Assembly (NCBI GenBank): GCA_040219255.1
Contig: JAVJSW010000014.1
Span: 1-59,279, forward strand
Length of the DNA: 59,279 bases
From: Sumerlaeia bacterium
GTDB lineage: Bacteria; Sumerlaeota; Sumerlaeia; SLMS01; JAHLLQ01
Direction: 5' to 3'
A program made the position numbers and the translations under genes. Under the pieces are notes generated by a model that worked only from the letters and a program-made list of their open reading frames with translations, did not search any database and was not told the DNA's origin. Positions 2,882 to 23,118 of the stretch are shown here, piece after piece (position 1 is the stretch's first letter; each line of letters begins with the position of its first letter).

Positions 2882-3033
2882 TTCCGTATTCCTTTGGGGG
2901 AACCCGCGGGCGGGGCTATCCCATCATGTCAGATCCCCTGGCGCGGAATGTCCGCGCCAAAGGAGTGCACCAGGCGGCTGGCTTCTCGAAACCCTTCCGC
3001 GAGCCCTGAAGGCCCGCGGCGGAGCGCCGGGAA

Positions 3034-18711: not shown

Positions 18712-19989
18712 ATGCGTATGATACTCGCCGCCACCGCCGCGGGCTGGATGGCCCTGGCCGGAGCCGCCCCTGCCGGCGACGATCCCGTCCGCACCGGACT
18801 CGACGTCCTCGCCGCCGACCGCTTCGCCCTCCTCAAAACCCACGAAGCCGCCACCACGGCGCCCCTCGTCGGCCTTATCACGAACCAGAGCGGCCTCTCC
18901 CGCTCCGGCGAGCACATCCTCGACCTGATGCTGGAAAGCGGCGTCGCCGTCCAGGCCATCTTCGCCCCCGAACACGGCCTGCGTGGCGACATCGACCGCC
19001 CCTTCGACACCTACATCGACGAAGCCACCAGCCTCACCGTCCATAGCCTCTACGGCTCGAACAATCAGCGCCGCCCCGACGACGCCGACCTCGAGGGCCT
19101 CGACTATCTCGTCTTCGACATCCAGGACATCGGCGTCCGCTTCTACACCTACATCGCCACCATGGGCATCTGCATGGAAGCCGCCCAGGACCACGGCATC
19201 GACTTCGTCGTCCTCGACCGCCCCAACCCCATCGGCGGCCATTGGTTCGACGGCCCGATCCAGGACCCGGATCTCGTCGGCAACTTCACCGCCTTCCGCC
19301 CCATGCCCATCGTCCATGGCATGACCGTGGGCGAAGTCGCCCGCTTCTACACGGAAACGGACGACGAACTGGCGGTGGATCTCACCGTCGTCGAAATGGA
19401 GAATTGGAAGCGCGGCACCTTCTTCGACGAAACCGGCCTGCCGTGGGTCGATCCCTCGCCCAACATGCGGTCCGTGGCGGAGGAAATCCTCTACCCCCAG
19501 GTCGCCCTCACGGAATACAACCGCACCGTCAGTGTCGGCCGCGGCACGGAACGGCCCTTCGAGTACCTCGGCGCGCCCTGGATCGACGGCGACCGCCTGG
19601 CGGAGGAGCTTCGCGCTCGCGACTTGTCGGGCATCTGGGTTATGCGGACCACCTTCATGCCCCGCGCGCTGGATGTGACGGGCCGCGAGAACTACCCCTA
19701 TCAGTTCACGGAAACCGTCTGCCAGGGCGTGCGCTTCGTCGTCACCGACCGCGATGCGGTCAGGTCGGTCGAGCCGGGCCTGCACATCCTGCAGGTCCTC
19801 CAGGCCGTCGGCGGCGAGCGCTATGCGGAAGGTGGCGGCCTGCCCGCCAATCGGCGCCTCGTCGGCAGCGAAGCCGTCATCCAGGCTTTGGAAGCGGGCG
19901 AAGCCCCCGCCGCCATCGCCGAACGCTGGCGCCAGGACCCGGCGTTCGAGGCGTTTGCGCAAGCGCGGCAACGGGCGCTTCTGTACTGA
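18712..19989 (+). CDS. namZ: Exo-beta-N-acetylmuramidase NamZ (DUF1343) family, secreted
   Basis: Signal peptide, [50 protein letters not shown]. Confidence 0.9.
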
Positions 19990-20178
19990 TCAGGGCCCTG
20001 CTCCCCCCGCTTCGAAAACGACCTCCAGTTCCACCTGATGCACCGGGCAGCCGGGGCCATGGGCCTGTTCGCGGGCCTTCAGGAGGGCGGGAACGCCGAC
20101 CGCCGCCGCGGCCGACAGCAGGCCCAGGACCACCAGCAGTTCCGTCAGGGAAAATCCACGGGCAAATCGCTCAGTCAT
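19990..20178 (-). CDS. 62-aa prepilin-type N-terminal cleavage/methylation protein (mini-pilin)
   Basis: RG|FSLTELLVVLGLLSAAAAVGVPALLKAREQA class III signal; GAGGA RBS upstream. Confidence 0.75.
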   Translation of the reverse strand: MTERFARGFSLTELLVVLGLLSAAAAVGVPALLKAREQAHGPGCPVHQVELEVVFEAGGAGP

Positions 20179-20298
20179 GGTGGTTTGCGTCCTCTTGAGA
20201 AAAAGATGGCTTGGAAAAGAAGAACCAGGCAGAGCCCGCTCGCGGCAGGGGGCGGCCGGCGAGGGGATGCCTGGTTTCGCGATGGAAGCCGCGAGGGA

Positions 20299-21471
20299 TC
20301 AGTACCGCTCCCAGTTGCCCACCGACGCCCCGCCCGCGTCGATCACGACGCGGATCAGGCCGAAGTCCGAGGCCGCCGTGGCGATGAAGAGTTCGCTCTG
20401 CGTCGCCGTCAGGGCCCGGGCCTTCATGCCGCGCCAGAGCACCGGCTCCGCCGCGCCCAGCGCATTGCCCAGATCCGTGGCGATGTCGGCAAACGCGATG
20501 GCTCCAGTCACGTCCGTGGGAACGTCCGCGCCATCCCAGAGGACGATCTGCGCGGCCGCTTCGTCGAAGCCGTAGACCGTGCCGTTGCCGTCCACTTCCA
20601 GACCGTGAAGGTCCACACGGCTGCCGCCGGGCGTGAGCGCGTCGTCCCAGCCGAGAACCTCCGGGTCGATCGGGTCGGTGGCGGAGAGGCCCTCGATGGC
20701 CAGCAATTCGAAGTTGTCATGACCGAAGATGTAAATCGTGTCGTCCGAGGGATCGATGCCGACGGTTTCGGGGGGCAGTTCGCCGGTGATTTCATCGCCG
20801 GCGCCCGCGGCCGTGGCGGCCTTGAAATCATCGACGTCGAACAGATCGACTGCGGCGGGGCTGCCCGGGGTCGTGGTTTCGTCGATGAAAACGGTCTTCG
20901 GCTCGCCACCGGTCAGGACCTCGAACTCCTCGCCGAGGGCCCCGACGATGACGCCGGTGCTGGTGACGTCGTGGCTGTTCCAGCCCTGGATGCCGGGGCT
21001 GCTGACGAGCGTGGCGGCGGTGTAGGGCGAAGCGGAGGCGTCGATCTCGAACACCGTCCAGGGATCGCCGGGGGCCACCGCGTTGATGTCGCTGGCCAGC
21101 ACCAGGCGGTCGTTCGTGCTGTCGTAAACGAACTCGCCCACCAGGGTCAGGTTGCCGGACAGGCTCAGGTCCGTCAGGATCTGCGCCTCCGTCTTGACCC
21201 AATTGGCGGCCTTGCTGGTCAGGTCGATGTGCGCCACCGTCAGGGCGCCGGAGTCGTTGTGGATGATGAAGACCGTATTGCCGGGGCCGAGGGCCACGCC
21301 GTCCAACGCGGTGCTGGAAACGGTGACGCCGGCGTTGTCGAGAGCGGTTTCGATTTCCGCGACGGTGAGGGATTCGCCGGTGCTGGCGACGCTGAATTGG
21401 GCTTCGGATTTCGACGCCGCCGCGCAGCAGGCGCAGACCGCGAGAGCGGACAGAAGAGAACGGGATGTCAT
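20299..21471 (-). CDS. Secreted acidic beta-rich protein ending in SVGNWERY
   Basis: Sec signal MTSRSLLSALAVCACCAAASKSEA, AAGGAG RBS; 390 aa; real C-terminal part of the 20299..23073 track ORF. Confidence 0.85.
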   Translation of the reverse strand: MTSRSLLSALAVCACCAAASKSEAQFSVASTGESLTVAEIETALDNAGVTVSSTALDGVALGPGNTVFIIHNDSGALTVAHIDLTSKAANWVKTEAQILTDLSLSGNLTLVGEFVYDSTNDRLVLASDINAVAPGDPWTVFEIDASASPYTAATLVSSPGIQGWNSHDVTSTGVIVGALGEEFEVLTGGEPKTVFIDETTTPGSPAAVDLFDVDDFKAATAAGAGDEITGELPPETVGIDPSDDTIYIFGHDNFELLAIEGLSATDPIDPEVLGWDDALTPGGSRVDLHGLEVDGNGTVYGFDEAAAQIVLWDGADVPTDVTGAIAFADIATDLGNALGAAEPVLWRGMKARALTATQSELFIATAASDFGLIRVVIDAGGASVGNWERY

Positions 21472-21493
21472 GGGGTAAAGGGCTCCTTCGTTT

Positions 21494-21508
21494 TGAGAAC
21501 GATTTTCA
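21494..21508. promoter_or_regulatory. Fur-like 7-1-7 box
   Basis: TGAGAAC-G-ATTTTCA versus consensus TGATAAT-N-ATTATCA, in a divergent intergenic gap. Confidence 0.55.
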
Positions 21509-21557
21509 TTCCATGGGATTCGCACAGGGACTTCGCCCTTGACGAGGCCCGCGTCAA

Positions 21558-21572
21558 TGAGAATTGTTATCA
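21558..21572. promoter_or_regulatory. Fur-like 7-1-7 box
   Basis: TGAGAAT-T-GTTATCA, 12 of 14 arm positions match consensus, 25 bp upstream of the pilin ATG. Confidence 0.65.
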
Positions 21573-21597
21573 GTATCGCCCGCCGGAGAACCGCCCT

Positions 21598-22260
21598 ATG
21601 CGCCGCGCCTTTACCCTCATCGAACTCCTCATTGTCGTCGCCATCATCGCGATTCTGGCGGCCATCGCCGTGCCCAATTTTCTCGAAGCACAGGTCCGCA
21701 GCAAGGTCTCGCGGGTGAAGGCGGACATGCGCTCTCTGGCCACCGCCATGGAATCCTACGCGGTGGACAACAACAAGTATCCCATTCCGTCGAACGCCCT
21801 CGGCCAGTTCATCACCGATCCCGCCGGCGACAATACCGTCTCGCCCTACGAGACGAAAACGCCGATCCTGCTGACGACGCCGATCGCTTACCTGACCAGC
21901 CGCCAGACCGATCCCTTTGTCATTGTGCGCAACAGCGTCGAGCCGCCGCTCTACCACACGATCACCAAGGACTTCGTGGACCTGAAGCACGATACCAGCT
22001 CGACGAACTGGAAGATTTACTGGGCGATTTTCTTCGCCGAAACGTTCAATGGCATGTCGGCCCCGCCGGCCATCAGCTACTGGCTCCAGAGCTTCGGCCC
22101 CGATCAGGTTCACGACGCCAACGTGCCCCATGCCGCTGGCGGCCCCGTATTGGGCCCGCACGTGCATGGCAACGGGGCGATTTACGACCCGACGAACGGC
22201 ACCGTTTCCGGCGGCGACATCCACTACTTCGGCCCCGGCTACGGCTTCCCGGGGAGCTGA
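21598..22260 (+). CDS. Type IV pilin / T2SS pseudopilin-like protein
   Basis: MRRA|FTLIELLIVVAIIAILAAIAVPNFLEAQVRSKVSR, SFGPD, YDPTNGTVSGGDI; 220 aa. Confidence 0.92.
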   Translation: MRRAFTLIELLIVVAIIAILAAIAVPNFLEAQVRSKVSRVKADMRSLATAMESYAVDNNKYPIPSNALGQFITDPAGDNTVSPYETKTPILLTTPIAYLTSRQTDPFVIVRNSVEPPLYHTITKDFVDLKHDTSSTNWKIYWAIFFAETFNGMSAPPAISYWLQSFGPDQVHDANVPHAAGGPVLGPHVHGNGAIYDPTNGTVSGGDIHYFGPGYGFPGS

Positions 22261-22488
22261 TGGGGGCACGGGTTTGTCATCACCGAGTCGCTCCGCTTTC
22301 GGCCTGACCTCGATCTGTGCTTTCCGCGCCATCTGTGGCAAGAAATCATCGGAGGCCCATCCGTTCCAAAAATCCCCCTCGACTTTCACCCTGGAATGCC
22401 CACAACGCCAGCGTGACCGCCCCGGACGGCATTTGTCCTCAACCCCCGGCGGCTTGCGAGCGCGGAAGGGAGGCGCCATGGGCCCTCG

Positions 22489-23118
22489 ATGATTCAGGAA
22501 CAAAAGTCCGAGCGGCTCAGCCGCATACTCTCCGATCTGGAGCGCGAGGGATGGTGCCACCTCCCCGGGTTTCTCGACCAGGCGGAGACGGCCGTGCTGG
22601 CCAGCCAGGCCATGGCCAGTTGGCAGGACGGCGCGTTCGAGCAGGCCGCCGTCGGCCATGGCGCCGCGCGGCAGCTTCGTCCCGAAATCCGGTCCGACTA
22701 TATCCATTGGGTCGATCCCGCCGCCGCCACCGGCGCTCTCGGCGATTACCTGAATTTTCTCGAGGAGCTTCGCCTCGGCGCCAACCAGTCCTTCTTTCTC
22801 GGACTCTTCGATTACGAGGGGCATTTCGCCCTCTATCCCGCCGGGTCGTTCTATGCGGCGCATCTGGATAACTTCCGCAATCAGAGCCGCCGCATGCTGA
22901 CGTGCCTGCTGTACTTGAACCACGACTGGGTGCCGGAGCACGGCGGCGTGTTGCGGCTGTACACACAGTGGGAGCCGGAGGCGGAGAGGGCGTTTGTGGA
23001 TATCGAGCCGCGGGGCGGCACGCTGGTGGTCTTCGCGGCGGAGCGCTTCTATCATGAGGTCCTCCCGGCCCACAGCGAACGCTTGAGCCTGACGGGTTGG
23101 CTTTGCCGGCGCGATTGA
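22489..23118 (+). CDS. 2OG-Fe(II) oxygenase (prolyl-hydroxylase/SM-20-like)
   Basis: IRSDYIHW, YAAHLD (HxD), LYLN, HEVLP, RLSLTGW. Confidence 0.9.
   Translation: MIQEQKSERLSRILSDLEREGWCHLPGFLDQAETAVLASQAMASWQDGAFEQAAVGHGAARQLRPEIRSDYIHWVDPAAATGALGDYLNFLEELRLGANQSFFLGLFDYEGHFALYPAGSFYAAHLDNFRNQSRRMLTCLLYLNHDWVPEHGGVLRLYTQWEPEAERAFVDIEPRGGTLVVFAAERFYHEVLPAHSERLSLTGWLCRRD

Follow-up and report, generated by a model that had tools for sequence, protein, structure and literature searches.

The locus analysed here raises the question of which metal controls a pair of divergently oriented genes, and whether the two encoded proteins serve to acquire it. Both genes lie on contig C14 of the 5.35-Mb, 83-contig genome (G000) of a Sumerlaeia bacterium; this contig, with a length of 59,279 nucleotides, is referred to as the window. 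The gene of a secreted protein (sec390) and that of a pilin-like protein (pilin220) share an intergenic gap of 126 bp (21472-21597) with a GC content of 55%, compared to 63.6% for the genome. An earlier note on this DNA had placed two palindromes in the gap, at 21494 and 21558 and thus one near each start codon, and had interpreted them as Fur-family-type operators of a metal-limitation response that serves iron or metal capture. Both palindromes are present at these positions, and two Fur-family proteins (PF01475) score above the Pfam cut-off in the genome, one of 131 amino acids on contig C11 and one on contig C39, in line with operators of this type. Iron, by contrast, does not hold up as the metal. 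As judged from the genome-wide distribution of such sites, both boxes are very probably operators of a zinc (Zur-type) regulon and not of an iron Fur regulon. We further propose that the pair constitutes a Zur-repressed envelope module, in which a His-bearing pilin and a propeller protein capture zinc. As a whole we consider this reading fairly probable, while the zinc-capture function of the two proteins, taken alone, is put forward more tentatively.

The evidence for zinc comes from the other sites of the genome. Each window box has a 7-1-7 layout of 15 bp in which five of the seven arm positions are complementary. When the whole genome was scanned for the word TGA-N9-TCA, the best Fur/Zur-like palindromes besides those of the window were located upstream of zigA, upstream of a znuA-type operon and upstream of the Fur-family gene on C11 (Table 1). 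A motif, TGADAATNATTHTCA, was derived solely from these three sites, leaving the window boxes out. In the 5.35 Mb it has three exact sites, which are the three just named and all lie upstream of the respective genes, and three sites with one mismatch, namely both window boxes and one site within a gene of an AT-rich island. For independent, identically distributed letters, 0.01 exact and 0.5 one-mismatch sites would be expected. The box before the Fur-family gene is the best one in the genome and suggests autoregulation; the 131-residue protein, whose own gene carries this box, is likely the repressor acting on both window boxes. The binding protein of the znuA-type operon has a long His-rich loop. 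Such a loop is a hallmark of the zinc-specific members of this family of binding proteins and transporters, while manganese-type binding proteins lack it.

At the feoAAB locus, the best site has five mismatches, and the best site near the sole TonB-dependent receptor of the genome has four. This receptor, the only PF00593 match, is encoded on contig C33, in agreement with the observation of the earlier note that the window holds no TonB receptor. Because the exact sites mark zinc genes and the regulator gene and none of them lies near iron genes, the boxes are assigned to Zur-type rather than iron-Fur control. Control by an iron-sensing Fur, with the pair capturing iron, is improbable. Relative to the classical Fur core consensus TGATAAT-N-ATTATCA, which is likewise of the 7-1-7 type, box 2 deviates at two positions and box 1 at three, two Fur-family genes are available in the genome, and His clusters are able to bind other metals. 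All other strong sites, however, stand at zinc genes or at the regulator gene, the iron loci named above carry no box, and the TGA-N9-TCA scan revealed no separate class of Fur-like sites.

Sites of lower quality were treated separately. The genome holds 33 sites with two mismatches, and the neighbours of five of them were annotated (a DUF4832/DUF4874 gene with a small tagged protein, a methyltransferase, an ABC-2 system, exbD-tonB and an unknown protein). None of these is clearly a zinc gene, and two-mismatch sites were left uncounted as regulon members. The remaining one-mismatch site was likewise rejected as an operator, since it lies inside the AT-rich island gene and is regarded as a chance match. 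This low-GC gene (C65:83950-85790; L006 5933-7768) codes for 611 amino acids in a genome of 64% GC, and the island looks horizontally acquired. A further palindrome, GGAGAATCATTCTCT at C49:142787 (L038, about position 3001), contains a perfect 13-bp core palindrome and is flanked by the gene of a secreted DUF4874/DUF4832 protein at a distance of 54 nt and by that of a 252-residue protein with a C-terminal tag (see below) at 101 nt; it may be a weaker Zur site.

Table 1. Genes and boxes of the locus, and the three sites from which the genome-wide motif was derived. Positions without a contig prefix refer to the window.
Feature	Position	Strand	Description
Mini-prepilin open reading frame, 62 amino acids	19993-20178	-	Prepilin N-terminal motif; N_methyl E 9.7e-5
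sec390, secreted protein, 390 amino acids	20302-21471	-	Signal peptide; six-bladed beta-propeller model; ends S-V-x-N-W-x-x-Y
Zur-type box 1 (probable), TGAGAACGATTTTCA	21494-21508	.	22 nt 5' of the sec390 start codon
Zur-type box 2 (probable), TGAGAATTGTTATCA	21558-21572	.	25 nt 5' of the pilin220 start codon
pilin220, pilin-like protein, 220 amino acids	21598-22257	+	Prepilin N-terminus AFTLIELL; four-His loop between GPD and YDPTNGT motifs
2OG-Fe(II) oxygenase	22489-23115	+	2OG-FeII_Oxy_3, PF13640 E 2.3e-21
Box at zigA	C18:67171		Upstream of zigA; NCBIfam ZigA equivalog NF038288, zinc metallochaperone GTPase, 608 bits vs cut-off 600
Box at znuA-type operon	C46:94423		Upstream of ZnuA / ABC ATPase / ABC-3 permease operon
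Box at Fur-family gene	C11:51668		26 nt 5' of the start codon; best box genome-wide

Within the window, a degenerate pattern covering both boxes has two matches, which are the boxes themselves, and no match in 100 shuffled versions of the window. Box 1 is located directly 5' of the AAGGAG ribosome-binding site of sec390. On the pilin side, a -35-like TTGACG hexamer can be read by eye at 21539-21544, followed by 13 nt to the start of box 2; the box centre, AATNAT, is found by eye at the expected -10 position, 17 nt after the hexamer. An upstream TTGACG or TTGACA hexamer was also read by eye in the gaps of aligned relatives. The overlap of the box centre with the would-be -10 element and the higher AT content of the gap compared to the genome could indicate that the palindromes are ordinary elements of an AT-rich promoter, arisen by chance and without a dedicated repressor. 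We regard this as hardly credible: none of the shuffled windows has a match, five of the six genome sites with no or one mismatch front zinc genes, the regulator gene or the sec390/pilin220 pair, and the boxes hold their positions across genera while the DNA around them has diverged.

This conservation was evaluated in 60 related genomes, 13 of which contain a sec390 homolog. In 11 of the 13, a full-length orthologous pilin gene adjoins it, ten times divergently and once convergently (L019); in the remaining two, the N-terminus of a pilin is found at the locus edge, at a distance of about 1.2 kb (G050), or the match is a fragment at a contig end (G024). All 11 sec390 loci found in the named genome collection belong to metagenome-assembled genomes (MAGs) of Candidatus Sumerlaeota or Sumerlaeia, and the names on close protein homologs likewise point to Candidatus Sumerlaeota or Sumerlaeia. 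Because identity to pilin220 amounts to 49-77% for the adjacent pilins, compared to at most 49% for the full-length paralogs within the genome, these neighbours form a distinct orthologous subfamily tied to sec390. The earlier note had also counted the mini-pilin and the 2OG-Fe(II) oxygenase among the parts of the module. Neither of these two stands beside the pair in the relatives examined (0/15 and 0/11 loci in two locus sets), and the same holds for NamZ and all other window genes. As no other window gene adjoins the pair there, the conserved module is the sec390/pilin220 pair plus its gap.

In the shared gaps of the relatives, box-like palindromes were found in eight of the ten divergent loci; the boxes are thus kept in orthologous loci. 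The gaps of L012, L013 and L014 carry two boxes each, with at most one mismatch and at the same positions as in the window, while those of L016 and L017 carry one box on the pilin side, located as box 2 is in the window and without a mismatch to the consensus TGAGAATNATTNTCA used for scanning. If one mismatch at most is allowed, the core GAGAAT-N1-2-ATTCTC occurs eight times in the 2,200 nt of gap sequence, compared to no occurrence in 40,955 nt of other DNA of these loci. Moreover, the box upstream of zigA in G003, TGAGAATCATTCTCA, is identical to the box before the pilin gene of the same genome, and a box, TGAGAATCGTTCTCA, is present upstream of znuA in G021. Among the znuA loci of relatives, only one of seven (L051) has an upstream box, and L050 ends at a contig edge. 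In L031 and L033, the regions upstream of zigA contain variant palindromes, as read by eye.

The protein encoded on the right-hand side of the gap, pilin220, begins with a prepilin signal, MRR-AFTLIELL, which is recognised by the models N_methyl (29.8 bits, cut-off 21.2) and TIGR02532 (32.4 bits, cut-off 16.3). It further matches part of the T2SSG domain (27.7 bits, cut-off 21) and fails the GspG equivalog TIGR01710, for which it scores 54.5 instead of the required 88.85 bits over residues 3-84 only. The AF2 model of pilin220 has a pLDDT of 93. The protein belongs to a large set of paralogs: the genome contains 56 open reading frames (ORFs) of at least 100 residues with a prepilin motif, and 45 of them, pilin220 included, are of similar length (165-260 residues from motif to stop). 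Common to the paralogs are the N-terminal helix and two motifs, GPD and, at the C-terminal end, YDPTNGTxSxGD, whereas the loop between GPD and YDPTNGT is hypervariable. In pilin220, this loop contains the pattern H-x5-H-x7-9-H-x-H, formed by H172, H178, H188 and H190, and the His-rich loop described in the earlier note is therefore present. All 12 locus-linked copies possess the four-His motif. Among the 66 top-ranking homologs in the database (the window protein counted), 63 match it, in contrast to none of the 44 other aligned paralog ORFs of the genome. pilin220 is the only pilin paralog with boxes; no other site with zero or one mismatch is found at a pilin gene anywhere in the genome.

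Several homologs depart from this form of the loop. Some metagenomic homologs (P0081, P0091, P0101, P0123 and others) have, in place of the four-His loop, stretches of 15-30 His, Asp and Glu residues, which resemble in composition the His-rich loop of the genome's ZnuA-type protein. Another subfamily of pilin220 homologs shows a fixed HD...PGH...GDG form of the loop. In L053, L058 and L060, a second pilin paralog (39-49% identical) is encoded past the Zur-linked pilin, on the side opposite to sec390; none is found there in the genome of the window. With respect to assembly, a genome-wide profile search gave no match to a secretin, a T2SSE ATPase or a prepilin peptidase on the contig of the window. 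Elsewhere in the genome, one prepilin peptidase, eight secretin and 18 T2SSE ATPase matches exceed their cut-offs, and machinery for prepilin processing and assembly is therefore encoded.

The second protein, sec390, carries a signal peptide whose A-x-A-type cleavage site is kept in its orthologs, and no Pfam or NCBIfam family matches it at E 0.01. Its homologs form 24 clusters among 5.8 billion proteins; all displayed names read 'hypothetical protein', and both names that bear an organism give Candidatus Sumerlaeia. According to the AF2 model (pLDDT 87.7), sec390 is a six-bladed beta-propeller, for which Foldseek returns, at E values of about 1e-10, the designed protein Pizza6, the PknD sensor domain, SMP-30/gluconolactonase and NHL proteins (TM by target about 0.7); the structure matches of the Atlas belong to the SGL and choice-of-anchor I families (TM 0.57-0.62). 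Invariant residues are H71, H251, D287 and H289, while WRG346-348 and many acidic residues are nearly invariant. Because of the repeat pattern of sec390, the three histidines H71, H251 and H289 would be placed on one face of the propeller. There is no paralog of sec390 in the genome.

The earlier note had referred to sec390 as a tagged protein on account of its C-terminus. The exact ending, SVGNWERY, does not recur in the genome, whereas 38 of 4536 long coding-like ORFs terminate in a looser motif, V-x-x-W-x-x-[YFLMIW] with 0-2 residues after it, mostly preceded by Ser or Ala. Shifting the pattern inward by 5 to 100 residues yields 1-6 ORFs. The description as tagged thus stands for the motif and not for the exact sequence. 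In sec390 orthologs, the tag ending is conserved. A fuller form of the tag can be written as [S/A]-[S/N]-V-x-[D/N/E]-W-x-x-[Y/F/L]-[E/D]?; in the window it is found at the end of sec390 (20302) and of an ORF on the minus strand ending at about 48424. No hydrophobic or transmembrane helix follows the motif, and no curated sorting-signal model of NCBIfam or Pfam matches sec390, which sets the tag apart from known C-terminal signals such as PEP-CTERM, LPXTG and the T9SS CTD. It may serve Sumerlaeota as a signal for export or attachment not described so far. A recurrence of pairs of pilin and tagged protein, in contrast, was not borne out: five of the 38 tagged ORFs are located less than 3 kb from a pilin-like gene, compared to 2.0 expected and up to eight at random, and for only two other pilin paralogs (on C71 and C43) does a tagged neighbour lie no more than 450 bp upstream.

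That the two proteins act as a pair, as had been proposed, agrees with their conserved neighbourhood and with a complex prediction that passed its controls. For this prediction, mature sec390 (residues 24-390) and the pilin head (residues 28-220) were used with separate alignments. The median score is 0.65, compared to 0.00 for the best of three controls. In a benchmark, 116 of 157 solved complexes and two of 215 mismatched pairs reach that score; these counts apply only approximately, since the present prediction was run with alignments prepared for this analysis. The contacts of the runs agree to 70% or more, and the pLDDT of the partner is at least 73. The confident part of the interface brings the pilin helix 131-148 together with the propeller loops 72-77, 107-111, 128-136 and 182-186. 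The prediction thus supports binding between sec390 and pilin220.

Taken together, these observations are consistent with the following mechanism. When zinc is sufficient, the Fur-family repressor, likely the C11 protein, would occupy one box per gene and block both promoters. When zinc becomes scarce, sec390 and pilin220 would be expressed along with zigA and the znuA-type ABC importer. The pilin head may then bind Zn2+ via its four-His cluster, and the propeller would dock on this head. Via the N-terminal helix of the pilin, the complex could be placed at the inner membrane, or alternatively on a pseudopilus-like fibre, so that zinc would be concentrated near the membrane or the fibre and handed over to the ZnuA-type binding protein. 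Of this, the boxes, their regulon context and conservation, the conserved gene pair and the lineage-specific His motif are established computationally and the complex is a prediction, while we infer the binding of zinc, the place of the proteins in the cell and the hand-over to ZnuA. A bolder version, which we think unlikely, treats the prepilin scaffold as having been turned into a zinc scavenger: the His-cluster pilin would be built into or cap a pseudopilus-like fibre and, with the docked propeller, act as a retractable or envelope-spanning 'fishing rod' that picks up Zn2+ beyond the inner membrane and passes it to ZnuA. If true, this would represent metal uptake across a diderm envelope with no need for a TonB-dependent receptor, and the dozens of pilin paralogs would be exchangeable ligand-capture heads that differ in their hypervariable GPD-YDPTNGT loop.

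The pair might also be under Zur control without capturing zinc. It could then serve a zinc-sparing or adaptive role at the surface, e.g. as a zinc-independent substitute for an envelope component, in a change of adhesion or motility, or as a propeller hydrolase on a pilin anchor, with the His cluster being structural or binding another ligand. Zur regulons often include zinc-independent paralogs and behaviour genes. For the latter, one report (PMC8248653) concerns Zur-regulated chemotaxis and congregation genes, in keeping with such a role. Furthermore, pilin220 belongs to a set of about 45 paralogs, the predicted interface largely bypasses the His cluster, and the propeller fold is common to metal hydrolases of the SMP-30/gluconolactonase type. 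We nevertheless consider a role other than capture rather doubtful: the Zur-linked pilin copy gains histidines instead of losing metal ligands, the loops of homologs grow into His/Asp/Glu runs that are typical of zinc-capturing loops, and for sec390 no paralog exists in the genome that it could replace.

A number of observations weigh against the proposed zinc-capture module and its Zur-type control. In the predicted complex, A180 is the sole residue of the His loop in the confident interface, and the His cluster mostly lies outside it; with Foldseek, no structure matches the head of the pilin at E <= 0.001. A scan of 19900-22600 for consensus sigma-70-type promoters gave no site at threshold, and a look-up of sequencing runs gave no RNA run that contains the locus. 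Among the divergent gaps, those of L018 and L021 show no recognisable box, and those of L015, L020 and L023 carry GAGAAT-NN-ATTCTC, i.e. a 6-2-6 instead of a 7-1-7 layout. In six of the nine relatives' zigA loci that extend at least 330 nt upstream (L027, L030, L032, L034, L036 and L037), no box is found within 330 nt, some of these genes possibly being internal to an operon. The regulator, too, is hard to name. The C11 protein has no PDB sequence match, and it matches none of 24 relatives at E <= 1e-15, a threshold that is maybe too strict for 131 amino acids. For both Fur-family proteins, the NCBIfam models of PerR and Fur rank above that of Zur, all below cut-off. Finally, the binding protein of the ABC importer scores 206 bits for AztC (zinc) and 191 bits for MntC (manganese), again both below cut-off.

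The last two points could indicate manganese or mixed-metal control of the Mur/PerR kind, in which a manganese- or peroxide-sensing regulator binds the boxes and the ABC system imports manganese. MntC and MntA score close to AztC and AztA for this system, and PerR ranks first for both Fur-family proteins, with all scores below cut-off. Such control is nonetheless very improbable, given that the GTPase encoded behind the C18 box passes the ZigA equivalog model (608 bits vs 600) and that the binding protein has the long His-rich loop which manganese types lack.

Further observations concern the variation of boxes and regulators among relatives. The loci with 6-2-6 boxes, L020 (G020), L023 (G053) and L015 (G014), belong to more distant Sumerlaeota, in which the spacing of the operator may have shifted together with the regulator. 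In G014, whose zigA region is among those of L031 and L033, the palindrome upstream of zigA ends in ATTGA...TCAAT over 20 nt, as does the one in the gap of its sec390/pilin pair (L015), both read by eye. In five of the seven znuA loci of relatives (L045-L049, from G006, G007, G002, G001 and G004), a small gene lies directly 5' of znuA, the product of which ends in C-P-L-C ... C ... H/C and may be another metal-responsive regulator or a chaperone. This small gene is not present at znuA in the window's own genome.

As to the layout of the locus, the span 19990-23118 holds four genes, i.e. the mini-prepilin, sec390, pilin220 and the 2OG-Fe(II) oxygenase (Table 1). The mini-prepilin ORF shows a coding-like GC distribution over codon positions. 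Between it and sec390, a terminator-like hairpin can be drawn on the minus strand (20238-20226); such hairpins are no commoner than in shuffled sequences. The oxygenase gene is set apart from pilin220 by a 228-bp gap without a box.

Most of what is known about zinc-starvation regulons stems from cultured Proteobacteria, Firmicutes and Actinobacteria. The present locus adds a Zur regulon from an uncultured phylum that is clean and accessible to computation. In addition, one member of the large and unexplained pilin-like expansions receives a first concrete and testable role; similar expansions occur in the Planctomycetes-Verrucomicrobia-Chlamydiae (PVC) group and in related phyla. Should the His-cluster pilin prove to bind zinc, it would represent a new type of scaffold for capturing metal, and the hypervariable loop of the paralogs might be a general ligand-binding site. 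Recombinant proteins would allow an inexpensive test of the prediction, without cultivation.

Compared to known systems, the regulon resembles Zur regulons with ZnuABC and COG0523/ZigA in that a Fur-type palindrome lies over the promoters, the same box is found at znuA, zigA and the Fur-family gene, and a divergent promoter region has one operator per gene. It differs from them in its origin from an uncultured Candidatus Sumerlaeota MAG and in a regulator that is too divergent to be named Zur by sequence models. For the regulated pair, we know of no counterpart among Zur targets and of no Zur-controlled prepilin-type protein with a His cluster. A full-text literature search returned neither a Zur-regulated pilin-like protein nor Sumerlaeota pilins in the titles and the first lines of the abstracts. 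The GspG and type IV pilins share with pilin220 the prepilin N-terminus with Glu5 of the mature protein and the partial T2SSG match, and weak Foldseek rows lead to PulG/EpsG and type IV pilins. The variable loop of pilin220, located before the C-terminal strands, corresponds to the position at which GspG binds calcium. In contrast to those pilins, pilin220 fails the GspG model, its head has no fold match at the above threshold, it is one of a set of about 45 paralogs and no assembly genes lie beside it. As for sec390, it has the fold of the SMP-30/gluconolactonase, NHL, PknD and choice-of-anchor I propellers, and conserved His, Asp and Glu positions are repeated in its successive blades; unlike the SMP-30 and NHL propellers, it has no SGL or NHL Pfam match, belongs to a small family and shows no identified catalytic motif.

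In terms of function, the closest parallels are proteins of envelope zinc capture that are induced in zinc starvation, such as ZinT, the streptococcal Pht histidine-triad proteins and the His-rich loop of ZnuA. Another zinc-starvation-induced capture protein is Zcp/DUF4198 (PMC12663993). With these, the pair would have in common the regulation by zinc starvation, which is predicted here, an exported His cluster with His/Asp/Glu expansions in homologs, and the presumed hand-over to ZnuA. There is no relation in sequence or family to any of them; here, a prepilin scaffold with a class III signal peptide is used, and zinc binding is predicted. In conclusion, the regulon itself is a Zur system of the usual kind, found in an unusual phylum, whereas the pair that it regulates is out of the ordinary.

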